Source: a virus
Taxonomy: Duplodnaviria; Heunggongvirae; Uroviricota; Caudoviricetes
Reading direction: 5' to 3' (one strand)
IMG/VR virus record: IMGVR_UViG_3300031992_000041
Coordinates: 1 to 64,000 of that record
Length of the DNA stretch: 64,000 nt
The position numbers and the translations under genes were made by a program. This document shows, piece after piece, positions 22,284 through 60,560 of the stretch. The notes beneath the pieces were generated by a model. That model was not told the origin of the DNA, did no database searches, and saw nothing but the letters and a program-made list of their open reading frames with translations. Each line of letters opens with the position of its first letter. Position 1 is the first letter of the stretch.

Positions 22284-22437
22284 ATTACTTTCTCATTATT
22301 TTCTTCCTTAACGACTATCAGTTTAACTTTATCTTCTTGACATAGCACTCTGGATTTGGGTAGGCGTAAAATCCTGCACATTTCCTATAAAGTTTTGCAC
22401 ATCCTTTACAATAGCCTTCATCTTTTTGCTTTCATAA

Positions 22438-22860
22438 CTATTCCTCCTTATCCCATGTTACATAATACGAGTCGCAATTATTGTGCGTACCAAGCAGATG
22501 ATCGTTACCGTCGTAGGGAATACATTGCTTCCACCATCCTCCAATGCAGTGGTACTGGTTGCCGCATAGTGGCTTGTATGTGCTGAACAGGTCCGCCTCC
22601 CAAGAGTCGCCATCATCAAGCCTTCTAAGCACCTTTTGGAATGGCTTGAACTTAGTTGGGTCATAATGTATAGAATCGTCAAATCTTTGTATATTATAGT
22701 CGCATAATACGGGAATACCGCATACTTTTCTCGCTCTTGAATCGCCGCAAATCCATTTCACCTCGTAATTCAAGTCAACGTCCGTGTAAAAGTCAACAAT
22801 GTCGAACACAGAATCGCCGTAAACGATTCTATCGCCTTTTGTAAATTTTGGTTGTGTCAT
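22438..22860 (-). CDS. hypothetical protein (140 aa), first gene of the low-GC island
   Basis: ORF track; marked drop in GC. Confidence 0.5.
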   Translation of the reverse strand: MTQPKFTKGDRIVYGDSVFDIVDFYTDVDLNYEVKWICGDSRARKVCGIPVLCDYNIQRFDDSIHYDPTKFKPFQKVLRRLDDGDSWEADLFSTYKPLCGNQYHCIGGWWKQCIPYDGNDHLLGTHNNCDSYYVTWDKEE

Positions 22861-23360
22861 ACTTTTCTGATTTGGATGTTTATTTTATCACCAGCAACTA
22901 TGTCAAGTGTATCTAATGTTGACTGTGGGACTTTGATAAGCATTCCCCCTGTAGATGCGCCTTTTACTACTTCTTTGGTTAACCCTCTTGCAGGCTCTTT
23001 AGGACACCCGTGAGCAAGAGCCATACTTTGCGCTTGAATTTCGACTTTTGCTTGATTCTTACCCCACTCAGAACCCCGATAGAATCCCTTTGCAAAGGCT
23101 AATTCTTGGGAATTGTCTTCCAGTGCATCAACAGTTGCTGCCCCTCTGTCATTGTAACCTTTCCATTCTCTTGCAAGTGCTTCTTCCAAATCCTCGCTTA
23201 CAGGCTCTTCTTGCATAGTGTCAAGTATAGCAAGAACCTCATTGTATGCCTCTTCCTTGCAACGTGTCTCCATTGCAATTTGTGAAGCGCAAACACCTCT
23301 TAATAATTGCGATTTCAGTTTTTCAACCTCTTCACGGATTTTCTGTACTTTGTCTGTCAT
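22857..23360 (-). CDS. hypothetical protein with C-terminal AbrB/MazE-like swapped-hairpin segment
   Basis: C-terminus GGMLIKVPQSTLDTLDIVAGDKINIQIRKV resembles the SpoVT/AbrB fold. Confidence 0.45.
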   Translation of the reverse strand: MTDKVQKIREEVEKLKSQLLRGVCASQIAMETRCKEEAYNEVLAILDTMQEEPVSEDLEEALAREWKGYNDRGAATVDALEDNSQELAFAKGFYRGSEWGKNQAKVEIQAQSMALAHGCPKEPARGLTKEVVKGASTGGMLIKVPQSTLDTLDIVAGDKINIQIRKV

Positions 23361-23363
23361 ACA

Positions 23364-23555
23364 TTATTCGCTTATTAAATTCATAACTTTATTGTACGAT
23401 TCTGCGTTTAAATTGTATTTCGTGCCATTTTTAAGGATAAGTATATAGCCTGTATAACTAAAACCTCCTTCTATGTGACACGAACTGATTTCGTCAACAT
23501 TGACCATTATTTCGCCACCTCTTCCTTGGGTTCTCAAACTAATAAAATGTGTCAT
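23364..23555 (-). CDS. hypothetical protein (63 aa)
   Basis: ORF track. Confidence 0.4.
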   Translation of the reverse strand: MTHFISLRTQGRGGEIMVNVDEISSCHIEGGFSYTGYILILKNGTKYNLNAESYNKVMNLISE

Positions 23556-23811
23556 ACCTCCTCTCCTTTCTGTGCTTTATTCCTTATACATCCCTCATAA
23601 GGTGATACATAACATTCATTATCTTTCTTCTGATACCAAAAACATTTAGTTGGTTTAAGACATTTATCTTCTGTCTCCACCTTCATAACTATTCAATTTT
23701 ATTTGTTGTATGTGTATTTGCTGGCTTTGGTTGCCTTTCATCGCAGAGAGCAGCACTGCAATACTGGCAGTGCCTATCTTCTGGTTTAATGTCAAATATA
23801 CACGGCATACT

Positions 23812-25020
23812 TTATTCCTCCCTTAGTTTCTTTAATTCATCTAAAATCTCTTTAAGTCCTATAGCATTAATACCACGATCTTTGTACATGCTAATAGCAT
23901 CTGTAATACACCCTAAATGAAATGCACTCGGCTTCCAAGTGTTCTGGGGTCTGAGGGATTTAAGCCAATCCATATCTTGATTCACAGCAAAACGTGTTCT
24001 GGTAAAGGTAGCACCTTTCTTACACATTCCATCAAGTCTTTTAAGGATACTTTCAATATGTTCTTCATCCTCTTTACTCCATTCTTGTTTTGGTACAAGT
24101 CCTAAGAGAATGTTTGCTTGTTCTTTTATTGCATTAGTATCATTCGGGTCTAAACCTGCATTTTCTCCAAAGAAGGAACCTCCTATATGCATCATTGCAT
24201 TTTCAAAATCAGTCAAATCACCTGTATTTTCTTGTCTCCATTCTTGCTTAGGTTGTGGTTGTACTTTGTCCTTGAGTGATTTAAGCCAATCCATCTCACT
24301 TGCATTTAATCTACTCATATAAGAAATACAATTATTGAGATGTATTATATCCTCTTCACTCCACTCAGCAGGCTTCTGTATAGTATCTATAAGTTCTTGT
24401 ATATGAGCATCAACATAATCTATTATATCCCCATTAGTTGGGGTTTCGTCTTTGCAATACCATCTAAATCTTTGGAATAGTTCTAACAACTTATCTTTTA
24501 GGATTGAATTGTTACATTCAGCAGACTTTTGTTTATATTTTGCTTTGGACGCAACATTGTAACCATCAGGAGTTTTTACTATCCATGCTCCAACTGGTAT
24601 TTCATAGTGACTACCATCTGCATTAAATAGTTTAAAAATACCATTGTGGTCATCGACATATTTCTCATACTCTTCAAAAGATTTGAACCACTTTCCAAAG
24701 TTCTTATCTTTACCTGTGAAGTCAATTACTTCTTTTAAATTATTACCTTTCCATTGAATCATATAAGGCTTCTGCTCGCCTTGCTTTTCAAGCAAAGCAA
24801 GAATTTTAGCCTTAAAAATATTTGAGTTGTCCACATAGTTATTAAGTATCGCAATGATACCTTTCCTTATCTCCTCATCCTCACTCTCTTTGAGTTCGGG
24901 GAAAAGGTCTTGCAAGTCGCTTATAAACGGCTTAGTTGTAGGATAGGCACATAATTGACGTGCCTTTTCTAAAGCCTTATCATAGGCTTTAGCCTTTTCT
25001 TCTATTGATAGTTCTTTCAT
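23812..25020 (-). CDS. hypothetical protein with internal repeats (402 aa)
   Basis: repeated EWS(E/K)ED…MDWLKSL(K/R) modules; low GC. Confidence 0.5.
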   Translation of the reverse strand: MKELSIEEKAKAYDKALEKARQLCAYPTTKPFISDLQDLFPELKESEDEEIRKGIIAILNNYVDNSNIFKAKILALLEKQGEQKPYMIQWKGNNLKEVIDFTGKDKNFGKWFKSFEEYEKYVDDHNGIFKLFNADGSHYEIPVGAWIVKTPDGYNVASKAKYKQKSAECNNSILKDKLLELFQRFRWYCKDETPTNGDIIDYVDAHIQELIDTIQKPAEWSEEDIIHLNNCISYMSRLNASEMDWLKSLKDKVQPQPKQEWRQENTGDLTDFENAMMHIGGSFFGENAGLDPNDTNAIKEQANILLGLVPKQEWSKEDEEHIESILKRLDGMCKKGATFTRTRFAVNQDMDWLKSLRPQNTWKPSAFHLGCITDAISMYKDRGINAIGLKEILDELKKLREE

Positions 25021-25104
25021 AATTCAATAAAGTTTATATTTAATTTCTGCCAATCAGCAAAATGTCTTGCAATACAAAACATATATATGTTTGTTATTAT
25101 CACT

Positions 25105-25413
25105 TTAACGCTTACAATATTGCTTTACTTCACTCCAAACTTCTTCTTTAAGTCTTATTTCGTCAGAACCATCATATTTCCAATGATAAGACTCATAAGA
25201 ATCTCTTTTTACTTTTTTGGAAAACATTCCGCAATATTTGCATTTTATTTCTGCCCAGAATGGTATAACAATAGAATCACCACTACCTTCATGGAAGTAC
25301 ATTTCTAAATTACCCCCACAAATAGGACATTTTGCTAAAGCGATTTCTTTATTTAATTTTTCCTCACGTTCAACATACTGTATCTGACGTTTAAGTAGTT
25401 CTTTATCTAACAT
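25105..25413 (-). CDS. hypothetical zinc-ribbon protein (102 aa)
   Basis: CPICGG…CKYCG. Confidence 0.45.
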   Translation of the reverse strand: MLDKELLKRQIQYVEREEKLNKEIALAKCPICGGNLEMYFHEGSGDSIVIPFWAEIKCKYCGMFSKKVKRDSYESYHWKYDGSDEIRLKEEVWSEVKQYCKR

Positions 25414-25415
25414 GT

Positions 25416-25760
25416 CTACAACATTTTAAGTTCATGTAATTTCTCTATCATAGCAACACAAGCATCAACAAGATTGTCTGCTTTAGTATATAAATCGCTC
25501 ATGTGTGGATATGTAATATAGTTGTCATCGAGATCTATTATTGGTTTACCACCTTGAATTTCTGGTAAGACACTAAGCAACGCTGCGAGACTCCAACATG
25601 GGTGTGCTAATCCGATTCCACTATAATGGCAGACAGGTTCTTTTGCATAGTTATATTCAAACGCATCTTTTGGATAGCACATATCCGCACTCTCTAATGG
25701 CAATATTTCTGCCAACTTCTTTGACTGCTCTATGTCTGTATAACTCTTAATTGTTGCCAT
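25416..25760 (-). CDS. hypothetical protein (114 aa)
   Basis: ORF track. Confidence 0.45.
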   Translation of the reverse strand: MATIKSYTDIEQSKKLAEILPLESADMCYPKDAFEYNYAKEPVCHYSGIGLAHPCWSLAALLSVLPEIQGGKPIIDLDDNYITYPHMSDLYTKADNLVDACVAMIEKLHELKML

Positions 25761-25896
25761 AGTTATATACTAAAAACATGATGTAATATTTTCAATCTCA
25801 TTTCCTTACCACATTCAGAACAGTAGGCATCACCATGTATATGCATGGTTGCAGGTTCTTCACATATAATACATTTTTCTGTAATTGTTGCCATAA

Positions 25897-26133
25897 TTAT
25901 TTCTTTTTAAGTTCTTCAATTAGTGCATCGGCATATCTTACAGCAAGGTTAGGAAAGGTATCTCCTTCTTTAAGATACACGCCACTATTTGCTAACAAAC
26001 CTTGCATAGCTGCTATTGCGGCCTGATTGCGCAGTGAGTTAATTGACTCAATGTAGCCCTCTTCATAACCTTCTTTATAGGCATAATATGATTCAGTACC
26101 ATACACTGCCTTGATTTCCTCTTTTGTTTTCAT
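25897..26133 (-). CDS. hypothetical protein (78 aa)
   Basis: ORF track. Confidence 0.45.
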   Translation of the reverse strand: MKTKEEIKAVYGTESYYAYKEGYEEGYIESINSLRNQAAIAAMQGLLANSGVYLKEGDTFPNLAVRYADALIEELKKK

Positions 26134-26527: not shown

Positions 26528-27529
26528 TTATCTTGTTACATTTTTCTTGATCTTTGCATTCATCCGTTCAATCTCCTTGGCCTCCTTGGTCATCGTGTTC
26601 AGGATGTCCAGCACGAAAGGCAGGTTGCTGTCATACACTTGCTGCTGCTCGGCATAGCCGGCGTACTTCATGATCGTGTTGACGGTGCCCACCTCGCCGG
26701 TCAGCGCGTCGCGCAGGGGATCGCTCTTGCCGTCAGACTGGAATAGGAGAGGGTAGGAAGCGGCATAGTAGGACATGGCGGTCTGGTAGGCCTGGAAGCA
26801 GATGTGGAAGAGGGTTTCCAAGGATTGCGTCTTCATCTTCGCGGTGAACCACTTTGCCAGCCCGTCAGCCCGGTCATCATCGTACCTGTATTCATAGTGC
26901 AGGCGCAGGTGGATGCTGCCGCCCGTGGTGTCAAGCAGCGACAGGGAGCGCGGCGTGAGGATATGTGCAAGAAACTGTGCCTGCAAGTCCAGAGCCTGGG
27001 CGTCTGTAATGTCTTCTGCAAACAGTTGCGGCGCGATTGCCTGAAGGCTCCGATACTGGCACCATGTGATGTTGTTGCAGGCGGCCTGGGGTAGGGCAAA
27101 GTGCCTGCGGCCTACCCTGACATGCTCCAGCGGCATGATCATCGCGTCGCGCATGCTACTGACATAGCCACGCACGGGGTCACGGCCCTCCCTGACCACC
27201 TTTCCATTCTCGTCCTTCACGGCATCCTCGCCACGGTCACCATACGGATAGTCAAACCAGGCCATGGCATGCCTTGCCACGTGTGCGGCCTCCCTGGCCG
27301 TCACCGCCCAAAGCCCGCCGTCCCTGTCCCGCAGGCGGTAGACCGTCTCTCCGCTGCGGTCGCTGACCGTGGCCTCCTGCCTCCCTGCCTTCAGCCCCAG
27401 CAGCGCAAGCATCGCGGACACCCTGGCCACGTCGGCATTGCCGCCATATCGCCGCTTCACGCTCCACATCATGGAGAGTTGCTGCCACGTGAGCGCGCTC
27501 CAACTTCCGGGTAGTGACTTCAAAACCAT
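26528..27529 (-). CDS. hypothetical protein (334 aa; start at internal MVLKSL)
   Basis: ATG (rc) at 27527-27529, 10 nt downstream of the upstream gene stop; part of the replication module. Confidence 0.5.
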   Translation of the reverse strand: MVLKSLPGSWSALTWQQLSMMWSVKRRYGGNADVARVSAMLALLGLKAGRQEATVSDRSGETVYRLRDRDGGLWAVTAREAAHVARHAMAWFDYPYGDRGEDAVKDENGKVVREGRDPVRGYVSSMRDAMIMPLEHVRVGRRHFALPQAACNNITWCQYRSLQAIAPQLFAEDITDAQALDLQAQFLAHILTPRSLSLLDTTGGSIHLRLHYEYRYDDDRADGLAKWFTAKMKTQSLETLFHICFQAYQTAMSYYAASYPLLFQSDGKSDPLRDALTGEVGTVNTIMKYAGYAEQQQVYDSNLPFVLDILNTMTKEAKEIERMNAKIKKNVTR

Positions 27530-27539
27530 ACTTGCTTGC

Positions 27540-28235
27540 TTATATGAGAGACTTGATCCATCCCAGGGCCTGCCATGTGTTCCAAGAAGAGCGCAGGGCA
27601 TCGTAGAGCGCGTCGTGCGCCTCCTTACCGCTGGTGTACTGTTCAGGCAGGGGGTCAAAGAGTCTGTATGCCGAAGAAGGATCTGCAAGGATCTGTAAAG
27701 GCAAGGCTATGCCGTTGGCCTTCGTACTCTTTCCGTTCATGCTGCGCTCCGCCTCAATAAGTGCCGCCTCCAGAATGATCGTCCGGCAGTCGCGGAACTG
27801 GGTGTGCGGCACGATGTCCTCCAGATTGATGTCATACTTACGGCAGAGGTTCCTGAGGATGGCAATATCTACGTCAGGCCCCTGGCACCACAGGCAGATG
27901 CTCTGCAACTCGTAGCGTTTCACAATTCTACGGATATAGTCAAGCGTGTTTATCAGCACGTCCGTGATCGCCTCCGGCAGTTCCGCCGTCACCGCCGCCT
28001 TCGCGGCATCTCCACGCTGTTCCCACCACCTGATCGTAGCCGGGTCGAAGTCAAATCCGTCCACCACGCACGTCCGCAGGTCCACATAGCCAACGAAAGG
28101 CTCCGTGTCCTGACAGTCAAAGAAGGGGTCACTCTCGTCGTCCCGCTTCCAGGGAACGACGGCCACCTGCATCACAGCCGCATTGGCCGATAGGCTGCAG
28201 GTCTCAAAGTCGATTGTAAAGTCAAGATGTGTCAT
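27540..28235 (-). CDS. DnaQ-like (DEDDh) 3'-5' exonuclease
   Basis: Exo I LDFTIDFETCS, Exo III HDALYDAL motifs; 231 aa. Confidence 0.75.
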   Translation of the reverse strand: MTHLDFTIDFETCSLSANAAVMQVAVVPWKRDDESDPFFDCQDTEPFVGYVDLRTCVVDGFDFDPATIRWWEQRGDAAKAAVTAELPEAITDVLINTLDYIRRIVKRYELQSICLWCQGPDVDIAILRNLCRKYDINLEDIVPHTQFRDCRTIILEAALIEAERSMNGKSTKANGIALPLQILADPSSAYRLFDPLPEQYTSGKEAHDALYDALRSSWNTWQALGWIKSLI

Positions 28236-28263
28236 ATTCGTTACTTATTTATCATAATTCTGA

Positions 28264-28662
28264 TTATGTCGATTTTTCACGCTCCCGCATCCTGCGGCGT
28301 ATCTCGCGGTCTGCTGCGCGTCGGCTGCGCTCTTCCATGATATGCTCGTAGAAGTCGCGGTGACAGGCGATGCCCTTCTTCTGGATGGCCTGCAACTGGC
28401 GTACCGCCTCCTTTTGCCATGCTGTGAGTTCCGCATTGACCGGCAGGCCCGCCATGCAGTCGGACAGGATCCTCGCGATATTGCCGAAACGCCGCGCTGC
28501 TACGGCGCTGAAGCGGCGCATCCTCTCCGTCTCCTGCCTGCATGCACGCCAGTATGCGAGTCCGGCAGACCGCTCCGAAGGGCCCCTGTAGATCCAAACG
28601 GCCTTGCCTGTGAGGCAGGACTTCCTGATGACCGTCGTAGAAGCATTGTGATTCTGATTCAT
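28264..28662 (-). CDS. hypothetical protein (132 aa, Arg-rich)
   Basis: ORF track. Confidence 0.45.
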   Translation of the reverse strand: MNQNHNASTTVIRKSCLTGKAVWIYRGPSERSAGLAYWRACRQETERMRRFSAVAARRFGNIARILSDCMAGLPVNAELTAWQKEAVRQLQAIQKKGIACHRDFYEHIMEERSRRAADREIRRRMREREKST

Positions 28663-28677
28663 ACCTTTCCTCCTTTT

Positions 28678-31600
28678 CTATTCTTCTGCCTCCGGATCAG
28701 TCTCGCCGGCTCCCTGTACCCAGTCGGCGTCGCCGGCATGGGCTTCGTCGTAGAAATGGCGCGGCACGCGGCCCTTGCGGTAGAAATAGTACACGCGCGG
28801 GTACGGAGCCCTCCTCACCAACTCACGGGGCAGGCGGTTGCCGGAGTCATCGGTGGCTACGCTGTAGCCGTCGGTGCCACGGGGGTGCTGCCACGCGGCA
28901 CAGCGGCGGAAGCCGTTCTCCCTGTCCGTCGGCGTGCTCAGCACCACGGGCGGGTCAGCCACGTAGACGCTTGTGCGGATGTAGTCGTCGATGTTGTCGC
29001 GGATGCGCTTGTAGGCACTCTTCAGCGTCTTCTCGCCGACGGTGACACCGCAGTAGTCGAGCAGCGAGATGGCCAGTTCGCGCTGGGCGATGGGCTGGCC
29101 GATATGCCTGCTGTCGGAGAGATACCCAGCAATCCATCGGGTGAACTGCTCGTCCTTCGATGCCGCCAGTGCCTGGCGCAGCATGGCGCGGCTGTCACGC
29201 GGCGGCCTCATGGTCTCGTCAGGGAACTGCAGGAACAGCCTCACGCAGCCGAGCAGCACATTCCTCGCCTCGTTCAGGAGTGCCGGCGGCAGGTTCCTTG
29301 CCACCTCCTTGATGCCGTACTGCATCCTGAAGTCGTCGGCAGGCGTATGAGCCGGTCGCGAGCCGTCGATGCTCCGGGGGTGGTACCAGTCTGACACCAG
29401 CACCTGATAGGTACGCCGCGACGTCGAGTCGCTGCTGAGATCCAACTGCTCGTTCGATGCCACCACGAACTTCGGCAGGTCATCGCCCTCCAGCACGACG
29501 CTGGAGCGGTAGAGCCCGCGCGAGGTTAGTGAGAGCGTATAGTTGTAGAGCGTCTTCGGCGAGAAGCCCTGAGGCAGTTCGTCGAGTGCCACGATGGTGT
29601 GCAGACCCGGCACTACCTTGTCGAGTTCCTGCGTCAGCGTGACGTTTCCACCCTCCAGTGCCTTGCCGTCCACCTTCAGCACGCGGCGCACCAGTCCAAG
29701 GAGTTCCAGGATGGCAGTCTTTCCCGTTCCGCCACTGGCCAGGTCCTCGCGGCGTGTCCCGTTGTCGGTGATATGTATGTACTGCTGTCGGTTGGCAGGT
29801 CGGTGGCGCACCAGTGCAGAGCCGATGGCATGGAGCATGGCCACGAAGTACATGTCCTGCACCTGTCTCTCGGTAGCCGTTAGTTCGGCACCGGCAGCCT
29901 CCTTCTCCCAGAAGATGCGTGATGTGTTGTACAGGAAGCGGAAGTGCAGGGGCATCTCGTCGAGGGGCTTGTCCATGACCAGACGGTACTTCCAGAGCGA
30001 AGCCCATGCGTCCCAGCGCATGTTCTCCTGCGCGCACTCGTCGGTGGTGTGTGCCGCCCGGATAATCTCGTCGTGCTTCTCCAGTTCCCCCTGATAGAGC
30101 GGGTTCACGACTACGCGCCATGCCTGTGGCAGCAGCGTGAACGTACCGCCGAGGATGGCCTCCGAGTTGGTCCACCATTTCATGCGGCCGTAGGGCACGG
30201 TCTCGATGCCGTCCTTCGTCACGAGCACGGCGGTGTTGTCAAAGAAGAAGTGGTCGAAGTCCTCGCCGAAACTCTTCTCGTCGAAGTCGAGCGTCTCGAT
30301 CGACTCCATCGTCGACTGCTCCAGTTTCGCGGAGTAGATGGCGCGGCTCAGGGCTCCCTTGCCGTCGTTATACTCCTTGTGAGCCCGCAGCCACTCTGCC
30401 ATCAGGTCGCGCGACTGCGCCACGATCTTGTTGGGGCTTCCCTTCTCACCGGGGAAGCACTCGGTGTATTTCCTGTCGTTGCCCAGCAGGAAGAAACGGC
30501 TGAACGACACCTTGCCCTGCTGCATCACGCGGCGCACCATGCCGCGTGCCCGCAGGAAGACCGGGGTGTTGCGCAGGTCGAACTTATACCTTGCCCTTCC
30601 GGTGCCGTCGGCATCCTTGCGCTCGCTCTCCCACTGCCAGAACTGCGTCGTCGGCGTGTCGAAGAGGGCGTTGTCGAACCAGTCCACGGGGTCGTCGTGC
30701 TGCAGGTCGGCGGGCATCCTGCCCTCCACCTCCTGAAAACGAGTGATGAAGTCGGTCACGTCCTTGCACCGGCGCTCCGCCGTCCTGCCGTTCACAATCT
30801 CTCGTAGTTCCTTCGGCAGGCGGAGCCAGTGGATGTTCGGAGAGTTGAGCGCTATCGCCTGACTGGCGGCCAGCCCCGTCTCGTCCTCGTCGTAGCACAC
30901 GTACAGGCCGCCGTCGGCCGTCACGGCCTGCAACTTCCTCAGCAGCGCGCGCAGCCAGCGGTTGGGCCGAAGGTTATCACCCTTCTTGTTAAAGCCGCTC
31001 TGCTCGCTATGCAGCCATACGACGTGCGCGTCGCTGTGGCTCCACACGGCGATGGCGTCACGCGGCCCTGAACAGAGCACCACACGACCGAAGCGCGGCC
31101 TCGCCGTCTTTTCTTCCTTGTCGCCGTCCTTGTCTCTCCTCTGTTCAACAAGCGGATGCCGGCTGTCCGGCTGCGGCACCACGCCGTCATCAAGATAGTC
31201 GCGCAACGCGGCGTCGGCATACCAACGGTGGTCAAGGTCGGCATCCTCGCTGACGTGCCACCAGGTCCACTTCGTATTGGCGTAAGTAGTCCTCGGCTCG
31301 TATTTCTTGATACCCCACGGATAGCGGAAGATAAACATCGGGTAGTTCTTCGTAGCCCTGACGATCATGACCACCGCACCGCCCTGCTTCGGCGTCTCGC
31401 GCTTGATGAACCGGCTGATCGGCTCAACGCCGAACACGCCGCACACCTCTTCGCCCCAGGCCTGTATGGTCCTGGTCTCCGCCTTCTGCCCGCGATAAAA
31501 ATCCCTGCCAAAGGAGCAGCGGTAAAGCGCCGCTCCAGTGTCAGGGTCAAAATCTGTCATTAAATCGCCAAATCTCACTTCCGATCTTCTGTTTCCCGTA

Positions 31601-32154
31601 TATTCGTCTAATTCGTTCTTTTTCATCCGGTGCGTCGACATCTCCACCTTCAGGCCCAGGGCCTTCAGGCCTTCCTCGGTCCACTGGCCAGGCTCGAAGA
31701 GCGGCTGGTCGCCACTCCAGTCGGCATACTGTTTCTCTTCCTTGCGGAACTCGTCCCATCCCACGATGCTCACACGCAGACTGCCCGAGCCGTGCCTGCC
31801 ATCCTCCTTCGGCTCCGGCTCCAGTTCCACCTCGCAGCGCGTCATAAGTTCCGAAAGCACCATCGCCAGATCCTCGGCGGGCACCTTGCCGGCAGGCAGC
31901 CCCATCAGCCTCGCAGCCAGTTGTATGGCGCCATAGCCCGTCTCGCCGCAGGCAAAGCACTTGAAGCCAAGGTCTGTGGCATCGTCGCGCAACGCCTTGT
32001 CAACCACCAGCGACGGGTGATGGTCGTCATGCCATGGACATTGGTACGTGGCAAACGCGCCGGTCTTCGACTCGTGCTTCGGCACATAGCCCCAGCCTCG
32101 CATCACCTCCACGAGCGGTATGGCATTCAGTATCTTCAGGTTAGTATCCGTCAT
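28678..32154 (-). CDS. DNA primase / helicase (CHC2 zinc finger N-terminus, P-loop NTPase in the C-terminal half)
   Basis: 1158 aa; CPWHDDHHPSL…FKCFACGETG (DnaG-type CHC2 zinc finger); Walker A ASGGTGKTA. Confidence 0.8.
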   Translation of the reverse strand: MTDTNLKILNAIPLVEVMRGWGYVPKHESKTGAFATYQCPWHDDHHPSLVVDKALRDDATDLGFKCFACGETGYGAIQLAARLMGLPAGKVPAEDLAMVLSELMTRCEVELEPEPKEDGRHGSGSLRVSIVGWDEFRKEEKQYADWSGDQPLFEPGQWTEEGLKALGLKVEMSTHRMKKNELDEYTGNRRSEVRFGDLMTDFDPDTGAALYRCSFGRDFYRGQKAETRTIQAWGEEVCGVFGVEPISRFIKRETPKQGGAVVMIVRATKNYPMFIFRYPWGIKKYEPRTTYANTKWTWWHVSEDADLDHRWYADAALRDYLDDGVVPQPDSRHPLVEQRRDKDGDKEEKTARPRFGRVVLCSGPRDAIAVWSHSDAHVVWLHSEQSGFNKKGDNLRPNRWLRALLRKLQAVTADGGLYVCYDEDETGLAASQAIALNSPNIHWLRLPKELREIVNGRTAERRCKDVTDFITRFQEVEGRMPADLQHDDPVDWFDNALFDTPTTQFWQWESERKDADGTGRARYKFDLRNTPVFLRARGMVRRVMQQGKVSFSRFFLLGNDRKYTECFPGEKGSPNKIVAQSRDLMAEWLRAHKEYNDGKGALSRAIYSAKLEQSTMESIETLDFDEKSFGEDFDHFFFDNTAVLVTKDGIETVPYGRMKWWTNSEAILGGTFTLLPQAWRVVVNPLYQGELEKHDEIIRAAHTTDECAQENMRWDAWASLWKYRLVMDKPLDEMPLHFRFLYNTSRIFWEKEAAGAELTATERQVQDMYFVAMLHAIGSALVRHRPANRQQYIHITDNGTRREDLASGGTGKTAILELLGLVRRVLKVDGKALEGGNVTLTQELDKVVPGLHTIVALDELPQGFSPKTLYNYTLSLTSRGLYRSSVVLEGDDLPKFVVASNEQLDLSSDSTSRRTYQVLVSDWYHPRSIDGSRPAHTPADDFRMQYGIKEVARNLPPALLNEARNVLLGCVRLFLQFPDETMRPPRDSRAMLRQALAASKDEQFTRWIAGYLSDSRHIGQPIAQRELAISLLDYCGVTVGEKTLKSAYKRIRDNIDDYIRTSVYVADPPVVLSTPTDRENGFRRCAAWQHPRGTDGYSVATDDSGNRLPRELVRRAPYPRVYYFYRKGRVPRHFYDEAHAGDADWVQGAGETDPEAEE

Positions 32155-32156
32155 CG

Positions 32157-32444
32157 TTATTCCGGTTTCACCAACAGTTCGTTCCTGAGCGGTTCGAGCA
32201 GGGCGCGGTACAGCACGCGCTTCTCCTCTGGAAAGTCACTCTCCTCAATGACCTGCAACTGAAACAAGGCCTGCGAGATGCCGAACACCTCGCAGATCTT
32301 CTCCACGGTGCCCTTCTGCGGATATGTCCTGCCGGTCTCGATGGAGCACACGGCATTGGTGCTCATGCCACAGCACTCCGCCAGTTGCGCCTGCGACATG
32401 TTATGCTTCAGCCGAAGCGTCTTTATTGCCTGTCCTATGTCCAT
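32157..32444 (-). CDS. XRE-family HTH transcriptional regulator (Cro-like position)
   Basis: LRLKHNMSQAQLAECCGMSTNAVCSIETGRTYP helix-turn-helix. Confidence 0.85.
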   Translation of the reverse strand: MDIGQAIKTLRLKHNMSQAQLAECCGMSTNAVCSIETGRTYPQKGTVEKICEVFGISQALFQLQVIEESDFPEEKRVLYRALLEPLRNELLVKPE

Positions 32445-32853
32445 GACTCGTTCTGTTTTTCGTTTTCTTGCCGGCAGCCTGCAACTTCTCCACCTGTCCC
32501 GACTTCTCGGCCAGTTCTTTCTTCATCTCTTCGATCGCGATATTGTACTCTCCGATCTGCTGCTGGTACCCGGACTTCATCTGCTCCATACGCTCGCGGT
32601 AGTCAGTACCCTGACGCTCCAGTTCCGCATCCTTCTCCCTGACACGCTCACGAAGATTCTCGATGAGCGTCTGGCTGCTGGTCAGCATCCTGGAGTCCTC
32701 CTCCATCTTATCGACAACATGACAATACAGGTCCTGCAAACACTTCACATGCTTTGCTGTCTTCTCATACTTCTCGCTCAACTCGTCCAGGTCATCCTGA
32801 TACGGGTTCTTGCCAAGAAAGGCCTTCCACAGGTTCGTTAAATATCGCGCCAT
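32401..32853 (-). CDS. coiled-coil protein (start at MARYLTNLW)
   Basis: ATG (rc) at 32851-32853; first gene of the leftward operon downstream of the divergent promoter region; the upstream part of the track ORF covers the AT-rich promoter region. Confidence 0.45.
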   Translation of the reverse strand: MARYLTNLWKAFLGKNPYQDDLDELSEKYEKTAKHVKCLQDLYCHVVDKMEEDSRMLTSSQTLIENLRERVREKDAELERQGTDYRERMEQMKSGYQQQIGEYNIAIEEMKKELAEKSGQVEKLQAAGKKTKNRTSHGHRTGNKDASAEA

Positions 32854-32892
32854 AGAATATTTTTTTTGAAAATTTAGTCCATAATTCACGAA

Positions 32893-32918
32893 TTTGTTGT
32901 AACTTTGGCGCAAAGATA
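32893..32918. promoter_or_regulatory. interleaved divergent promoters / operator palindrome TTGTAACTTTG-gcg-CAAAGATACAA
   Basis: TAACTTTG (rightward, 32897-32904) and rc TATCTTTG (leftward, 32908-32915) both match the Bacteroidota -7 consensus TAnnTTTG; together they form a near-perfect inverted repeat. Confidence 0.5.
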
Positions 32919-33015
32919 CAACTTTTTCGTGATACGACAATCGTTTTAGTATAGTTTTAACATCATTTTCGTATGTTTAAATTTTGAAAGCAACAACCTA
33001 TAAAGATGATGAAAT

Positions 33016-33720
33016 ATGAAAAAATGGAGTTTTAACAGACTGCTATTTAGCAGATTATCAGACGTTTTAGACATCTCTGGCACAGAGATAGCCAAGCGAT
33101 GCGGAATAACACAGCAAGTCCTGAGTCGTTACACGACAAACGAAATTGTTGTATCTGTGCAGACGCTTATAAAAATCTGCAACGCATTGCGCATGCCTAT
33201 CCACTTCTTCGTGTCAGAGGATGACAACCACATTATCCCGAACCGCGAGAGCGCCACCGTCGCTGCAGACAGATGGTGCCCGGTGACGTGGGACAGCCAG
33301 GCCGTTGAACAGACCTTTGGCGACGGGCGCATCTTTTGGAAAGATGTGGCAAAGGCGATGGGCATCACCTCGCAGAAACCGCACGAGCGCTTCTTGTTGC
33401 GCACCAGATTCCCGGTAACAGACTTCCTTTCCACGTGCAGCCATTTCGGCATCTCGCCATTTACGTTTCTTGTTGACAACAACCGCTACAACAAGCAGAA
33501 GGCAACCACCCCTGCCGTGCCAAAGGACGGCGACGCAACCCTGCGGGCACAGATCAAAGACCTGCAGAAGAAAGTAGAGAGACTTTCCACCACCGTCGAT
33601 GACCTCACAACCAGATACAGGGCTCTTCTGGATAGGCACGACCTTCTGGAGCAGACCGTGCGCCAACACCTCGGCTACAGTCCTATTGACCTGGCCGCCG
33701 ACGACCCTGACCAGAAATGA
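33016..33720 (+). CDS. double-HTH transcriptional regulator with C-terminal coiled-coil (CI-like repressor candidate)
   Basis: only plus-strand gene in the first 58 kb; DISGTEIAKRCGITQQVLSRYT (HTH) and a second HTH-like segment; divergent from the XRE/primase operon. Confidence 0.7.
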   Translation: MKKWSFNRLLFSRLSDVLDISGTEIAKRCGITQQVLSRYTTNEIVVSVQTLIKICNALRMPIHFFVSEDDNHIIPNRESATVAADRWCPVTWDSQAVEQTFGDGRIFWKDVAKAMGITSQKPHERFLLRTRFPVTDFLSTCSHFGISPFTFLVDNNRYNKQKATTPAVPKDGDATLRAQIKDLQKKVERLSTTVDDLTTRYRALLDRHDLLEQTVRQHLGYSPIDLAADDPDQK

Positions 33721-33735
33721 GAAGACCACAACAAA

Positions 33736-33776
33736 AAAAAACGCCCTTCGCTGCAAAGCGAGGGGTGTTTTTAAAA
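33736..33776. terminator. bidirectional rho-independent terminator
   Basis: A-run, GCCCTTCGCT-gcaa-AGCGAGGGG hairpin, T-run; lies between convergent genes. Confidence 0.6.
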
Positions 33777-33844
33777 TCACGGTCAAAAGGAACCGTCTCT
33801 CACGCGCACGTATGCGCATTAATAAAATATGTGCGCTACTCAGG

Positions 33845-34060
33845 TCAAAGTCCTCCGTATTCTTCGCCCACTTCCATATAACTGACAAGTTCGCGGAGTT
33901 CGTTTATCGTCTCGTCGAAGACCTTGGAGTCGCGGTGCTCCCGCAACTCCGAGGCCTGCATGAACTCCATGAGTTCCTGAAAGTCGGCCTTCGTGCCCGT
34001 GATCTTCAGCGTCGCCGTGTACTCCTTTCGCGGCGGGTGCGTCTCAAAGTCCGTCTTCAT
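33845..34060 (-). CDS. hypothetical protein (start at MKTDFETH)
   Basis: ATG (rc) at 34058-34060 preceded by AAAACAAGTAAC. Confidence 0.4.
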   Translation of the reverse strand: MKTDFETHPPRKEYTATLKITGTKADFQELMEFMQASELREHRDSKVFDETINELRELVSYMEVGEEYGGL

Positions 34061-34070
34061 GTTACTTGTT

Positions 34071-34571
34071 TTAATCCTCGTCGTCAAAATATCCGTACTC
34101 TAATTCCTTGATGGCGGCAATCATCTGCTCACGGATGTCCTCTCCGGTCAGTCCATCATTGTCACGCTCGAACCACAGGATGGCATCGTCAAGACTGGTC
34201 TCGTTGCAGTACTCCCAGTCATTCTCGCTGTAGCGTTCGATGAACTCCTCCTTGTCCATGTCCTTGAAGTGGCGGTACATGGTGCAGATGTCACAGCCGC
34301 AGGCTTCTGCGCTTTCGGAGCAGATGTTGTAGATGCTGGCAACCTCCTTCGTCTGGTACTTGATCCAGTGCGTCGTGTTGTTGTCGGCTTCCTCCGTCTC
34401 ATGCACCGTGCCGTCAGGCATCACCTCCATCCACTGATGTGTAGTGCCGCCATGTGAGCGCACCACCATATCATCCAGTTTGTCATCGTCCATGCTTTCA
34501 ACAAACGCTATTGCTTTGTGTCGCAGCGAATCGTTCTTAGTCATGTTTGTTTTCTTCAGTGTCTTGTTCAT
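34071..34571 (-). CDS. hypothetical acidic protein (166 aa)
   Basis: ORF track. Confidence 0.5.
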   Translation of the reverse strand: MNKTLKKTNMTKNDSLRHKAIAFVESMDDDKLDDMVVRSHGGTTHQWMEVMPDGTVHETEEADNNTTHWIKYQTKEVASIYNICSESAEACGCDICTMYRHFKDMDKEEFIERYSENDWEYCNETSLDDAILWFERDNDGLTGEDIREQMIAAIKELEYGYFDDED

Positions 34572-34610
34572 AACGATTTTGTTTTAATTGTTATTGTCTT
34601 GTCTCTACTA

Positions 34611-35342
34611 TTATCTGGTTTGACATTCTTCCCACTTCTCCACGCTGTAGCCCTCGTCGGTCTTCACGCCGAGGAAGGTGAAGGAGTAGCCGTGCGACTC
34701 AGGATCAGCCCACGACTCCAGCATCGCTATGTTTCCGCGATGGGTGAAAGTATCGTTCTTGATGTCCTTTACCGCCTTGTCGTAGGCATCCATGCCGCTG
34801 TCGGCAATCACGTTGCCTGAAAAAGTCATATCTGTGCGGTAGTCGTTGCCGTGGTTATTGAACACCGACAAGCGGAGGTCCAGTTCCACATGATACCAGC
34901 CGCGCTTCTGCTCGTAGAGTTCTGCCAGGCGGCGCTGCTTGGCGGCTTCCGCCTGGCGCATGCGCTCCTGCTTGTTGCGCTCACGTATCTCGTTGTAGAT
35001 ACGCTCGTGCTCTTCAAGAGTGTCTGCCAGTGCAAGGTAGAATGTGATGTCCCAGCAGCCGCAGCCCGTGGTGCGCATCGTCTCGCAGGTACGGACCGCC
35101 CCGCTTGGATAGCTGCCAAGCCCGTCACGGAACAGCGTGCGGATCTTTTGCTCCGTCGTGGCGTTCACTTTGATGTGGAACCATTCAGGATCAGCCGCCA
35201 GAGAGTCCGGCTTTCCATAGGTATTCCAGGAGTTAATCACTGCAATAGCCTCGTCAGCCGTGTGTGCTATTGCCTTGTAGGGTACATACGTGTTCCCGTT
35301 GCTGGCGCGTCCGCCGTAAGTAATACAAAATACGTTTGCCAT
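34611..35342 (-). CDS. hypothetical protein (243 aa)
   Basis: ORF track. Confidence 0.5.
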   Translation of the reverse strand: MANVFCITYGGRASNGNTYVPYKAIAHTADEAIAVINSWNTYGKPDSLAADPEWFHIKVNATTEQKIRTLFRDGLGSYPSGAVRTCETMRTTGCGCWDITFYLALADTLEEHERIYNEIRERNKQERMRQAEAAKQRRLAELYEQKRGWYHVELDLRLSVFNNHGNDYRTDMTFSGNVIADSGMDAYDKAVKDIKNDTFTHRGNIAMLESWADPESHGYSFTFLGVKTDEGYSVEKWEECQTR

Positions 35343-35388
35343 AATGCTTAACTGTTTAACCGATCAGTCCGGGGTCTTAAATAATGTT

Positions 35389-35595
35389 CTAAAGTTTCTT
35401 GTAATCCAGGTTATAATCCCTGCAAAATTTACGCCATGAACTATCGCTCATAGTCAGCCACCCATACACTTCGTCATCGCCTTTATCCGACCACCATGTG
35501 GTACGCGGATGGCAGTCAAGCCAGAAACGAATGTAGTGATTAAACAGACTGCCTTTTGTTTCAAGGCATACCATTTTCTGATTCTTGATTTTCAT
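35389..35595 (-). CDS. hypothetical protein (start at MKIKNQ)
   Basis: own leftward promoter TATCTTTG (rc of 35621-35628) about 25 nt upstream of this ATG. Confidence 0.4.
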   Translation of the reverse strand: MKIKNQKMVCLETKGSLFNHYIRFWLDCHPRTTWWSDKGDDEVYGWLTMSDSSWRKFCRDYNLDYKKL

Positions 35596-35600
35596 ACTCG

Positions 35601-35630
35601 TTGCAACTTTCGCCTGCAAAGATACGAATA
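35601..35630 (-). promoter_or_regulatory. leftward promoter with operator-like inverted repeat TTGCAACTTT…CAAAGATACGAA
   Basis: same motif family as at 32893 and 60528. Confidence 0.45.
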
Positions 35631-35727
35631 AGTGAGCGAAATACCAAATTTATTTGAGTATTTCCGCGCTCGGCTTGCCGCTTGCTACCGAAGGGACGCA
35701 AGAACGTGAGTATCTTTGAAATATTTT

Positions 35728-35765
35728 CCAATTCTTGCAAGAATTGGCAAGAATTAGCAAGAATT
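35728..35765. repeat. 20-bp perfect palindrome CCAATTCTTGCAAGAATTGG overlapping 3 tandem copies of nGCAAGAATT
   Basis: directly read; abuts the stop of the small lipoprotein ORF. Confidence 0.6.
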
Positions 35766-35921
35766 TTACTTCCATCCCTTCAGCCAGGCCAGCAGGCAGA
35801 CGATGGCCAGGAACCAGTTGCCCACGGTGCCGTCGTCCTCGCCGCCCGTGTCGCAGGAGGTGAGCAGGAGAGTTGTTGATACTGCGAAGATGATGTTTGC
35901 GATGATGATGTTCTTTTTCAT
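35766..35921 (-). CDS. small putative lipoprotein/membrane peptide (51 aa)
   Basis: MKKNIIIANIIFAVSTTLLLTSC… signal peptide plus lipobox-like LTSC; high-GC3 codons; the track's alternative-frame ORF 35650..35940 is compositionally implausible. Confidence 0.35.
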   Translation of the reverse strand: MKKNIIIANIIFAVSTTLLLTSCDTGGEDDGTVGNWFLAIVCLLAWLKGWK

Positions 35922-36073
35922 TGTTTGTTTCAATTTTCAATTTTCAATCACGGTTAGTCCGCGCTTGCGGGCCTTTTCGTAGAAGTCCTGCCGCACCTCC
36001 TCGGTCGGGAACCAGGCGAGCATTCGCCGTTCCCGTCCGTCCGGTGCGCGGAGGGTAAGTTCATAGATGCGGT

Positions 36074-41004: not shown

Positions 41005-44000
41005 TCAGGCGGCTTCGCGGAAGTCGTCTGATTTCTTGTCCTTGTTGAGCTCGCTGTTGATCTTGCGGTCGAGGATCGCCAGGTCGCCGCGCAACTTCTG
41101 CAGGTCGGCCTCCCTGCCCCACTCTATGCCGAGGATGCTGTCGAGTTGGGCGATGCTCTCGCTGTTGCGCTGCATCAGCCGCTTCCACCCGTCGATGCGC
41201 TCCGGTATGGCCATCAGCGCCTTCAGCGGGAACTCCGCAGAGGTGCGGGCACTGGCATGGTTCAGGTAGCCGTCGTTCCACGTGTGCTTCACGCTGCCCG
41301 TGCCCTCCACGCTGAACCTGTTCTCATGCACCATCCTTCCGTCGCCGTCCATATAGGTCCTCACCGTACGGATGAGCAGTCTGAAACCGTAGATGCTGCC
41401 CACGGGGATGTGGGCGTCGCTGGTATCGACGTTCCTGTCGAGTTGCAGCAGGCGCTCGCCGATAGCCTTCTTCCACTCGTCGCTGTCAGGCTCCATATCC
41501 TCAGGCACCGTGAAGCCGTCGATGACGATGTCGTTAGCCACGAAGCCGTCCTTGTCGGCACGCTTGCGCTCCAGAAACAGGTCGTAGTCGGCCTGTGCGT
41601 CCTTGCAGTGCCGGGCATACAACTCGTTCTGCTTCTGCAGCGTGCTGCGCTTGTCCTCCTGCTCACGCTTGTCACGGTAGAAATTCTTCTTCTCGCTCTC
41701 CAGGGCGGCGATCTTCTTCTCCAACTTGGCACGCTCCAGCAGGTCGGTGTTGCCTGACAGGATGGCCATGTACTCGGAGAAGTTCATGCCGGTGTTCTCG
41801 TCGAACGAGCCCTCGTCCAGCGTGCGGATGTCGAGTTGTCCGCGCTTCAGTTGGTTGATGAACGTCTGCTTGCAGTGCAGCAGGTTGAACTTGTAACTGT
41901 CAAGGCTCCGCTCCACGGCATAGATTATAATATCTACCTTGTTGTCGGCAAAGTCACGGGCAATCTCGTTACCCTTGCGGATGGCACGGCCGTCGCGCTG
42001 CTCCAGGTCGCTGGGTCGCCACGGCGTGTCGAGGTGATGCACCGCCACCACCCTCTCCTGGGCGTTGACGCCCGTGCCGAGCATGCTGGTCGAGCCGAAC
42101 AGCACCCTCACCTTGCCGTCGTTGACATCCTTGATGAGCGCCTGCTTCTTCGAGTCGCACTTGCACTCCTGGATGAAGCGTATCTCCCTGGCGGGGATGC
42201 CGTAGTCGTCCGTGAGCTTGCGCTTGATCTCCTCATAGACGTTCCACTTGCCGTCGCCCTGATAGGTTGAGAGGTCGCTGAACACCAACTGCGTGCCCTT
42301 CTGCTCGTCGTACTGGTCGTAGTAGCGCTTGATGAGCTGTGCGCACTTGCTGGCCTTGCTCCTCGGGTGGTCTGCATAGCCGGCATCAATCAGACGCATG
42401 TCGAGCGACATCTTGCGTGCCATGTCGGTGGCATAGAGCATCTTCGCCTTCTGCTGCTTGTCCGTCGGATTATTGATGCCTATCAGCGAGAAGTCGCCGC
42501 TCTGTGCGAACTTCATCAGCCGCTTGATAAATTCCTCCTGATCGGGGGTGGGCTTGATGTTCAGCAGCATGGCGTGCTTCGCCGGACGCTCGATGCCCAC
42601 GTCCTCCGCCGTGCGGAAGTCCGTTATCTCGTTGTAGAACATCGCCAACTCAGGCACCTTGATGAAATAGCGGAAGCGCTCCTTCAGCACGATCTGGTTG
42701 GTGATCGAGAACTCGAACTCCTGGCTCTTCTTGGTGAAGATGGCAGCCCATGCGTCAAAGCAGGTGATGCCCTGCTTGGCAAGCGCCTTCGGACGCAGAT
42801 AGCGGAACAGCGAGTACAGTTCCGTCAGCGAGTTAGTCACCGTGGTACCGCTCAGGAACGTCGCCCCGAGGTCACGCCCCGTCTTCTGCTGGATGGTGCG
42901 AATGGCCATCAGCAGGTTATAGGCACGCTTGCTTCCCTCGGTGTTGCCCATGCCTGCCACACGGTCGTGGCGGCTGCTGAAGCCGAGGTTCTTGAACTGG
43001 TGCGACTCATCCACGAAGATATGGTCGATGCCCAGCAGGTCGAAGTCCGTCACGTCGTCCTTCTTCTTGCGGATATCGTTCTGCAGGCCGAGGATTTTCG
43101 CCTCCATGTTACGCTTGCGCTGCTCCAGGCCGCGGCGCACACGGCTCGACATCTGATAGCCCCAGCCGTTGATGGCCTTCAGGCTTTCCTCTATCTGAGC
43201 CACCTCCTCACGCATCAGTTCCATCTGCACACGGTCGCTCTGCGGTATGCGTCCGAACTGGTCGTGGCTCATGATCACGCAGTCCCAGTCGTTGTTCTTC
43301 ATGCGGTTGAAGAAGTCGATGCGGTTCTGACCGCTGTAGTCGGCCTCACGGGCAAAGAGTATCTTTGCCTCAGGGTATGCAGTCCTGTAGGTCTCTGCGA
43401 TGGCACTGACGTTAGCCTTCAGCCCGATAATCATCGGCTTGTGGCACATGCCCAGCCGCTTCATCTCATGGGCTGCCATACACATGATGAGCGTCTTGCC
43501 TGCGCCTACCTCGTGGTCGCAGATGCCGCCGCCGTTCAGCAGCAGCATCCACACGCAGTCCTTCTGACTCTGGTAGATGCTCCTGATGCCGTACTTCTTC
43601 TCCAGCCCCTTCAGGTCGATGCCGGGGAAGGTCTGGTGCGAGCCGTCATACTTCGGCTTCACGAAGCAGTTGAACTTGCGGTTGTACACATCGGCCAGAT
43701 GCTCCTTGAACTCACGGCTCTGGCGCTGCAGCCAGTCGGCATAGCCCTGGCGTATCTCCTCCACCTTGGTATTGGCCAACTGCGTCTTCTCGGGGTCTTC
43801 CTCCTTCAGGTAGTCGCCACGGTCGTTCTGCATCTTACACCCTCTGGAGTCACGGATATAGCGCATCATCTTCGGACAGGTGTTCTGCAGGGCATGCACC
43901 AGCAGGTCCATGCCGTCGAGGTCGGTCACCTCGCTCCTCACGGCATACTGCGTGTATATCTTCTGGTTGCCTCGGTCGTTCTCGACGGCGTACTGGTCGA

Positions 44001-58754: not shown

Positions 58755-58810
58755 AACTTGTCCTATTTAGCCCATAGGTTGGGGGTCTTAAAAGTGAAAC
58801 ATAAAATAGT

Positions 58811-59410: not shown

Positions 59411-59417
59411 CGCGAGG

Positions 59418-60521: not shown

Positions 60522-60527
60522 TTATCG

Positions 60528-60560
60528 TTGTAACTTTTGTTTGACGTTGCAAAGATACAA
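60528..60560 (-). promoter_or_regulatory. leftward promoter (-7 TATCTTTG) embedded in inverted repeat TTGTAACTTTTG…CAAAGATACAA
   Basis: about 28 nt upstream of the 60521 start; third copy of the operator-like inverted repeat. Confidence 0.45.

Follow-up and report, generated by a model that had tools for sequence, protein, structure and literature searches.

Bidirectional promoters carry core elements in a symmetric arrangement on opposite strands, and their divergent starts are defined as 7-25 bp apart, with classes given at 29, 23, 18, 12, 10, and 7 (10.1101/2020.01.31.928960). At such promoters, one RNA polymerase binding event prevents the other (PMC12825309). In the conjugation switch of pLS20 the divergent promoters Pc and Pr overlap and are of unequal strength, and their control involves the XRE-type repressor Rco, DNA looping, and the sites OI and OII, which are located 75 bp apart (PMC4207663). 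Here, we describe a locus of similar arrangement in a stretch of 64,000 nucleotides (called the window in the following), which represents positions 1 to 64,000 of the IMG/VR virus record IMGVR_UViG_3300031992_000041 (Caudoviricetes). An extended palindrome, P1, lies between the plus-strand gene of a regulator with two tandem helix-turn-helix (HTH) domains and a leftward operon coding for a coiled-coil protein, an XRE/Cro-like protein, and a primase-like protein (Table 1). The analysis supports P1 as a bidirectional promoter hub; its interpretation as a CI/Cro-type bistable switch is a conjecture.

P1 resembles the bidirectional promoters of Warman and Grainger in its symmetric core elements on opposite strands and in starts that are only a few base pairs apart (predicted at a distance of ~6-10 bp in P1). 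However, those promoters contain sigma-70 -10 hexamers that overlap by their own symmetry, whereas P1 contains two separate 8-bp Bacteroidota -7 boxes at a distance of 3 bp. Also, the former are a by-product of motif symmetry, whereas P1 is a deeply conserved candidate regulatory hub of a phage, with predicted starts. The Bacteroidota are not among the phyla analysed for bidirectional promoters in the accessible part of that study (10.1101/2020.01.31.928960). Among regulated systems, Pc/Pr of pLS20 appears to be the closest analogue that we found. In both cases the strong promoter (presumed to be strong in P1) of a long mobile-element operon overlaps the weak divergent promoter of a regulator with an N-terminal HTH, which in pLS20 oligomerises, and in both cases a second site is found tens of base pairs away, with 75 bp between OI and OII and ~59 bp between P1 and the imperfect inverted repeat P2. 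In contrast to the window regulator with its two tandem HTH domains and coiled coil, Rco has one HTH and forms tetramers. The two systems belong to different phyla with different promoter grammars, and the likeness drawn here is one of arrangement.

The arms of P1 are 22 nt long and 82% complementary, and its fold as single-stranded DNA has a z-score of -5.05. The core TTGTAACTTTG-GCG-CAAAGATACAA (32897-32921) occurs only once in the window and is flanked by the outer repeats TCACGAA (32886-32892) and TTCGTGA (32926-32932). Two opposed -7 boxes of the Bacteroidota type are part of P1, TAACTTTG on the plus strand and TATCTTTG on the minus strand (32918-32911), the latter reading CAAAGATA in plus-strand letters, and the core promoter elements are symmetrically arranged on opposite strands. 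The composite TAnnTTTG-N3-CAAAnnTA is present once in 64 kb and absent from 100 dinucleotide-preserving shuffles. It is not expected by chance, and the element is real, non-random, and deeply conserved. A preliminary description of this DNA had proposed an inverted repeat with two -7 boxes 3 bp apart. The distance is confirmed (32900-32907 and 32911-32918), and both boxes do conform to the -7 consensus of Bacteroidota sigma-A (PMC7366714). The arms of the repeat extend further than had been claimed, and the box coordinates had been given 3 bp too low. Substituted forms of the boxes, provided as designs only, are TAACTTCC for TAACTTTG and GGAAGATA for CAAAGATA.

The consensus of the Bacteroidota sigma-A factor (sigma-ABfr) consists of a -7 element, TAnnTTTG, and, about 19-21 bp upstream of it, a -33 element, TTTG, of which the latter is not universal in the phylum and could not be identified in Flavobacterium (PMC7366714). 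The annotated phage and plasmid collections contain no nucleotide match to 28001-36000 (blastn), and the regulator has no match in phages (tblastn). Therefore, there is no annotated relative to lean on. Relatives were found on IMG/VR viral contigs of 52-140 kb, on three independent contigs of ~135 kb, and on contigs binned into metagenome-assembled genomes (MAGs) of rumen Bacteroidaceae and Prevotellaceae. Records of complete genomes of ~135 kb include IMGVR_UViG_3300026549_000045 and Ga0265301_10000103. The only match of the primase among isolated phages is the primase/TOPRIM protein of Polaribacter phage Leef_1 (tblastn, 20% identity, E = 3e-10). Because the relatives in these MAGs and the Polaribacter phage match point to the Bacteroidota, the promoter grammar of this phylum is the right one for the window, which derives from a large, uncultivated Bacteroidota phage or phage-like element. 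A scan for sigma-70 promoters was disregarded as irrelevant to this type of host, and only its terminator output was used. Nine of the 11 leftward-oriented TAnnTTTG boxes are located in the intergenic 11% of the window, where about two would be expected, and coding DNA is depleted of them. In this genome, TAnnTTTG is a true signal of promoters.

Aligning the sites of the window and its relatives yields, on the transcribed strand, the family promoter consensus TTGC(-33)-N19-TAnCTTTG-CA-N1-8-AAAG(C/T)TACAAC. In addition to two sites in the window (35600-35624 and 60527-60557), it is supported by sites in L001 (5117-5144), L003 (4543-4566), L007 (4497-4520), L011 (2880-2903), L018, L019, L021, and L041 (L-numbers denote related loci or lineages). 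The YTACAAC element covers about +1 to +12, its position being set by the -7 box and not by the start codon; it may be an initiator, an operator, or a leader signal. An extended box, TATCTTTGCA, is common to the leftward promoters at 35617, 59239, and 60550 and to the leftward box of P1. The leftward promoter of P1 is complete, canonical, and nearly invariant, with a -33 element that fits the TTTG consensus of sigma-ABfr (PMC7366714) and full agreement with the family consensus. Its function is well supported by the comparative evidence. Given the geometry of the consensus, its start is predicted at ~32904-32906.

For comparison, 45 loci from rumen and gut metagenomes were reduced to 33 non-identical upstream regions, which were aligned. 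The relatives came from an alignment-based scan and a palindrome-only scan, and scans of viral contigs with single proteins gave nothing. Box counts refer to 27 distinct relatives and -33 counts to 31. P1 is the best-conserved block of the 33 intergenic regions, and its distance from the ATG of the regulator is nearly fixed (94-108 nt). From 22 unique 53-bp segments, the consensus ATTTCACGAAATTGTTGTAACTTTG-CGG-CAAAGGTACAACTTTTTCGTGAATC was obtained, in which TTGTA/TACAA, CTTTG/CAAAG, and TTCAC/GTGAA are mirrored pairs, whereas the 3-bp centre and 'nn' can vary freely. The boxes keep a distance of 3 bp across this diverse phage family, except for one clade with 4 bp. Scans for Rfam families and tRNAs gave no match anywhere in the window, and therefore no known RNA element accounts for the conservation of the palindrome region. 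The palindrome-only scan of IMG/VR resulted in six contigs, and wherever the sequence was readable the palindrome separates a coiled-coil gene from a homologue of the regulator. In four of the six this homologue is only ~29-30% identical, but the central 25 bp of the palindrome are identical. The recognition helices of these regulators are altered from QQVLSRY to STWYxIM and from QKPHERF to RDNLRKS. Since the core is unchanged while the recognition helices change, the regulator is argued against as the constraint on the core, and the invariance points to the host transcription machinery, i.e. the polymerase. In a co-evolving dimer operator the bases of the two arms would be expected to covary. 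Changes in one arm have a counterpart in the other in some cases (L008, L028) but often lack one (L034, L040), and covariation was discarded as evidence. In L010, L041, L042, and L044 a 33-bp insertion in the left flank leads to three direct TTGTAG/TGTATC copies, and the palindrome centre has 4 bp instead of 3. This insertion hints at TTGTA being a reiterated recognition unit.

In the rightward half of P1, TAACTTTG is the only consensus rightward box of the intergenic region, and it is also perfect in all five additional IMG/VR lineages from the palindrome-only scan. The family downstream element TACAAC is present as well. A start at ~32912-32914 is predicted, which would result in a leader of ~100 nt, whose sequence is poorly conserved outside P2. 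As the preliminary description had proposed, each predicted start would fall inside the opposite -7 box, and box geometry puts the starts ~6-10 bp apart, within the range reported for bidirectional promoters (10.1101/2020.01.31.928960). P1 matches the family consensus in both directions, and P1 alone has GTTG/CAAC on both sides. The right-side CAAC is found between the leftward -7 and -33 elements, where other family promoters show no conservation, and its position is the one expected for a rightward downstream element, which would favour a rightward promoter. This is also favoured by the L010/L041 clade, in which the generic AGCTACAA element is located further downstream while the opposed box has remained beside the leftward box at 4-bp spacing.

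The second element, P2, has its GTTAAA at a fixed distance of 66-71 nt from the leftward box. Its centre lies ~60 bp upstream of the start predicted for the leftward promoter, and P2 might therefore just as well be a site from which a regulator controls this promoter.

Table 1. Positions of P1, its promoter elements, and the surrounding genes and sites in the window
Feature	Position	Strand	Description and basis
Extended palindrome P1	32886..32932	.	3-bp centre; arms 32886-32907 and 32911-32932
Rightward -7 box	32900..32907	+	TAACTTTG; candidate distal promoter of the regulator gene; perfect in 21/27 relatives
Leftward -7 box	32911..32918	-	TATCTTTG; promoter of the coiled-coil/XRE/primase operon; perfect TAnnTTTG in 26/27 relatives
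Leftward -33-like element	32938..32941	-	ATTG (mostly TTTG in relatives), 19 nt upstream of the -7 box; TTG at the exact 19-nt spacer in 27/31 relatives
P2	32955..32981	.	Imperfect inverted repeat TTTTAACAT-N9-ATGTTTAAA between P1 and the regulator ATG; conserved
Regulator gene	33016..33720	+	234 aa; two tandem XRE-type HTH and C-terminal coiled coil (Pfam HTH_3, hhalign, AlphaFold2)
First leftward gene	32401..32853	-	150-aa coiled-coil protein without assigned function; start ATG 32853, not TTG 32940
Second leftward gene	32157..32444	-	95-aa single-domain XRE/Cro-like HTH protein (Pfam HTH_31 and HTH_3)
Third leftward gene	28678..32154	-	1158-aa primase-like protein, CHC2 zinc finger and TOPRIM region; weak Zn_ribbon_DnaG and PHROG primase matches
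Terminator-like hairpin	33733..33772	.	Two-way: A9, stem-loop 33742-33767, T5; directly after the regulator stop codon
Family-type promoter	35600..35624	-	TATCTTTG-caggcg-AAAGTTGCAAC, -33 TTG at N20 (motif match)
Family-type promoter	60527..60557	-	TATCTTTG-N13-AAGTTACAAC (motif match)

We propose that P1 would be the control hub of the locus and that its quasi-palindromic core would serve as a two-way sigma-A-type promoter. The leftward half (TTG, 19 nt, TATCTTTG, 4 nt, AAAGTTACAAC) would be strong and drive the replication operon of the coiled-coil, XRE, and primase genes. The rightward half (TAACTTTG, 4 nt, AAAGATACAAC, without -33 element) would provide weaker transcription to the tandem-HTH regulator through the ~100-nt leader, probably supplemented by a weak proximal box in P2. 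Because the predicted starts are so close and each lies inside the opposite -7 box, one bound RNA polymerase would exclude the other, and strong firing in one direction should lower transcription in the other. The HTH proteins of the phage would bias the direction through the outer repeats (TCACGAA/TTCGTGA) and P2 and not through the invariant core. In this model, the start sites, the mutual exclusion, and who binds where are inferred, whereas the sequence and its conservation, the motif statistics, the gene content, and the architecture of the proteins are observed.

Essentially all genes at 0.3-62 kb are located on the minus strand according to codon-usage scoring. The regulator gene, which the preliminary description regarded as the only plus-strand gene of the first 58 kb, is the sole credible one up to ~62 kb. 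One other plus-strand gene is present in the window at 63114, and it is also preceded by the octamer TAACTTTG. The double-HTH and coiled-coil architecture, which had likewise been proposed, holds as well. The regulator matches HTH_3 (PF01381) with 37.6 bits at a Pfam cut-off of 23 (41.8 bits for the 95-aa XRE protein), and an internal duplication reveals a second HTH domain homologous to the first (hhalign, E = 6.7e-6). The AlphaFold2 model, with a predicted local distance difference test score of 82, has a long C-terminal helix at residues 172-218. The HTH fold matches XRE domains, and its closest structural relatives are the mobile-element repressors P22 c2, 434, TP901-1 CI (PDB 6tri), ImmR, Stl, and DdrO. 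A structure search with the model found no full-length analogue. The regulator has 88 homologous clusters. In L004 (3950-6714) and L008 (3960-6771) the regulator is followed by further plus-strand genes (for a 594-aa protein, a Flg_new_2 protein, and a 1943-aa LRR_5 protein) and not by converging minus-strand genes. In these two loci, the palindrome marks the true divergence point of two long transcription units.

The leftward gene order coiled-coil, XRE, primase-like is kept in the relatives. The coiled-coil protein represents a conserved family with 26-48% identity and always the same position, the XRE protein is 52-68% identical and was not detected in L047 or L050, and the primase-like protein is 59-79% identical. 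These three products of the leftward unit agree with the preliminary description, but its 'exonuclease' is unsupported since the next two leftward open reading frames (ORFs; 26528-27601 and 28264-28662) have no family match. Many relatives begin the coiled-coil gene with an ATG directly after the outer repeat, at the position of 32874-32882 on the minus strand, where the window has a two-codon mini-ORF, ATG GAC TAA. The real start of the window's coiled-coil gene is at 32853, 29 nt past this position, and the difference may reflect a short upstream ORF or just the loss of an N-terminal extension. At the other end of the regulator gene, the terminator-like hairpin would insulate the regulator from the upstream leftward gene array, and relatives have strong hairpins at the same place, often with A and T runs on the flanks. 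Because this conserved hairpin follows the regulator, the leftward operon needs its own promoter. A recurrent motif, GCGCGTATATAT(A/T)ATATGTGTGCG, is located between this hairpin and the leftward gene next to it, with the variant GCGCACGTATGCGCATTAATAAAATATGTGCGC at 33800-33835 of the window; the motif recurs in the 3' intergenic regions of L001, L003, L006, L007, L010, and L012.

On balance, we regard it as probable, with some caution, that the rightward promoter is real and that P1 is a two-way sigma-A-type promoter with a mutually exclusive core. Several observations weigh against this. Of the interleaved divergent promoters of the preliminary description the leftward one is complete, but the halves are not equivalent, the rightward one being without a conserved -33 element (TTG within 17-23 nt in 14/31 relatives, with variable spacing). 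The rightward box departs from the consensus in 6/27 lineages, with the degenerate forms TTAG, TTCG, and TTTA counted in four, and only one lineage has an imperfect leftward box. The left arm doubles as the usual downstream element (AAAG-YTACAAC) that the one-way leftward promoters of the family carry. Because CTTTG...CAAAG is inherently symmetric, one-way promoters carry partial antisense boxes. Two of 11 (L003 4559, L007 4513) even have a perfect one with no plus-strand gene nearby, and a perfect antisense box therefore does not prove a purpose. The right half of P2 contains a candidate proximal rightward promoter with the weak -7-like TATGTTTA (32972-32979), 36 nt before the ATG of the regulator, and in L050 the corresponding sequence is a perfect TAACTTTG. 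Both start sites are predictions from box geometry, and in E. coli, competition of polymerases at bidirectional promoters was seen only with one direction strongly activated (PMC12825309). It is possible, but rather unlikely, that P1 contains the leftward promoter only. The left arm would then be a downstream promoter or operator element that resembles an inverted -7 box because the family consensus itself is quasi-palindromic, the regulator would be transcribed from the P2 box TATGTTTA, and a dimeric protein bound to the palindrome would repress the replication operon. A one-way promoter with an operator agrees with the unequal conservation of the arms (leftward box 26/27, rightward box 21/27), with the -33 element being conserved in the leftward direction only, and with AAAGYTACAAC following the -7 box at many one-way promoters. 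It also agrees with the fixed distance of P2 from P1, with the TTG found at N21 of the P2 box in 10/19 lineages, and with the perfect box of L050, and a leader of ~30 nt is more ordinary than one of ~100 nt. However, only ~10/19 lineages have the critical 'TA' in the P2 box, and the conserved part of P2 is GTTAAA. Since about half of the lineages lack 'TA', a sigma-A promoter in P2 was demoted to a rival or auxiliary role. In addition, the left arm of P1 keeps a perfect TTTG far more often (21/27) than do antisense boxes without a plus-strand gene (2/11), which favours the rightward promoter, the right-side CAAC is conserved though the leftward promoter has no need of it, and the core is invariant while the recognition helices of the regulator diverge, which is against a constraint by a phage-encoded operator. 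We consider it very improbable that the palindrome is primarily a replication origin, a cruciform or other DNA-level site (primase loading, packaging), or the target of a host transcription factor. P1 adjoins the primase gene in an AT-rich intergenic region and is a long inverted repeat with a strong predicted hairpin, and the invariance of the core would also fit a conserved host protein as binder. However, many unrelated leftward genes are preceded by the same composite of -33, -7, and downstream element, the cumulative GC skew has no inflection at 32.9 kb and its sole turn near 61-62 kb, and the intergenic region of the window contains no iterons. The replication-origin reading was rejected because of the missing inflection and the recurrence of the composite.

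In the cI-PRM/OR/PR-cro region of lambda, the promoters lie next to each other, and the operators are three in tandem. The C1 repressor of phage P1, a large phage with DarB-type anti-restriction genes, has dispersed single and paired operators. The locus in the window shares with the lambdoid immunity regions two divergent XRE-family regulators and one short control region beside early and replication genes, and it differs from them by the interleaved core elements, by a regulator without S24 autocleavage domain, and by a Cro-like gene that is the second and not the first of its operon. In a CI/Cro-type lysis/lysogeny switch, the 234-aa protein would be the maintenance repressor and the 95-aa XRE protein a Cro-like counter-repressor competing with it at the palindrome. 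This is speculative and in our view unlikely, although the topology fits with two XRE-family regulators diverging around one shared conserved control region in conserved synteny, the nearest structural relatives of the HTH domains are repressors of mobile elements, and relatives are on contigs binned into Bacteroidaceae and Prevotellaceae MAGs. Among the ~60 window proteins scanned there is no integrase, partition protein, or excisionase, with the window being part of the genome and many small ORFs being outside the scan. In the regulator, Pfam finds HTH and coiled-coil matches only and the model consists of two HTH domains and one long helix, without an S24 or other inducible cleavage domain, which leaves room for antirepressor-type control. 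Furthermore, the three independent ~135 kb contigs look like free genomes, the XRE gene is the second of the operon and was not detected in L047 and L050 despite an identical palindrome, and the putative binding sites (outer repeats, P2, TTGTARC copies) are candidates by conservation. The interpretation given in the preliminary description is therefore partly supported: the shared control region of two divergent HTH regulators has the lambda topology, but the S24 domain and lysogeny genes are missing from the scanned proteins. Because no integrase, S24 domain, or other lysogeny marker was found, a CI/Cro switch stays a conjecture. TP901-1 CI/MOR provides a further parallel, with divergent PR and PL and a repressor that combines an N-terminal XRE HTH with a helical C-terminal oligomerisation region and has no S24 domain. 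MOR is a small repressor-binding protein encoded by the first gene of the lytic operon, and by analogy the product of the first leftward gene, the coiled-coil protein, could act in a similar way. As with C1 of phage P1, an element, TTGTARC, is found singly at the start region of early promoters (35600, 60527) and as an inverted pair at the regulator locus. However, no homology to C1 is seen, and TTGTARC may be a promoter feature in the window rather than an operator.

The window codes for an ArdC-like protein, two DNA methyltransferases, RtcB, two YopX proteins, a DUF5131 protein, and an HU-like protein in addition to the 1158-aa primase-like protein and a 1652-aa DarB-like methylase/helicase. 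The DarB-like protein, the ArdC-like zincin, the C5 and N6/N4 methyltransferases, and the RtcB RNA ligase represent a dense set of anti-restriction and repair genes at 41005-45963, 53517-54572, 18755-21480, and 616-1842. A low-GC island at 22000-26000 (34-40% GC compared to 53% overall) contains about six minus-strand ORFs without confident family assignment, of which one has a sub-threshold match to the Lar restriction-alleviation family and another, the 402-aa ORF at 23812-25020, matches nothing. This island looks like a recently acquired cassette within the anti-restriction region. Unusually long non-coding stretches are present at 58755-59505 (~750 bp) and 62307-63108 (~800 bp), near the turn of gene orientation and cumulative GC skew at ~61-62 kb. 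They contain several -7 boxes and hairpins, have no Rfam match, and are candidates for an origin or regulatory region.

How Bacteroidota phages regulate their genes has hardly been explored, and promoters in this phylum are unlike the textbook sigma-70 type. The analysis provides a testable promoter consensus, TTGC-N19-TAnCTTTG-CA...AAAGYTACAAC, for an abundant, uncultivated family of rumen and gut phages. P1 is a candidate for a natural two-way promoter in the -7/-33 grammar and would extend the concept of bidirectional promoters to the Bacteroidota, where it has apparently not been examined. If the leftward promoter alone were active, the finding would shrink to an ordinary repressor-controlled early promoter. 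The conserved part of ~50 bp could be tried together with the regulator genes as a switch in the engineering of Bacteroides or Prevotella. A more far-reaching view, which we put forward as doubtful, is that the core of P1 is a minimal toggle in the Bacteroidota promoter grammar. The host RNA polymerase would choose the direction, and a new class of tandem-XRE coiled-coil master regulator would bias this choice through the flanking repeats and P2 and maybe also bind single TTGTARC copies at other early promoter starts, with the coiled-coil protein as its antagonist. If this were true, P1 would represent the first defined decision circuit, for lysis/lysogeny or for the timing of early functions and replication, in a large family of ~65-140 kb Bacteroidota phages of rumen and gut.

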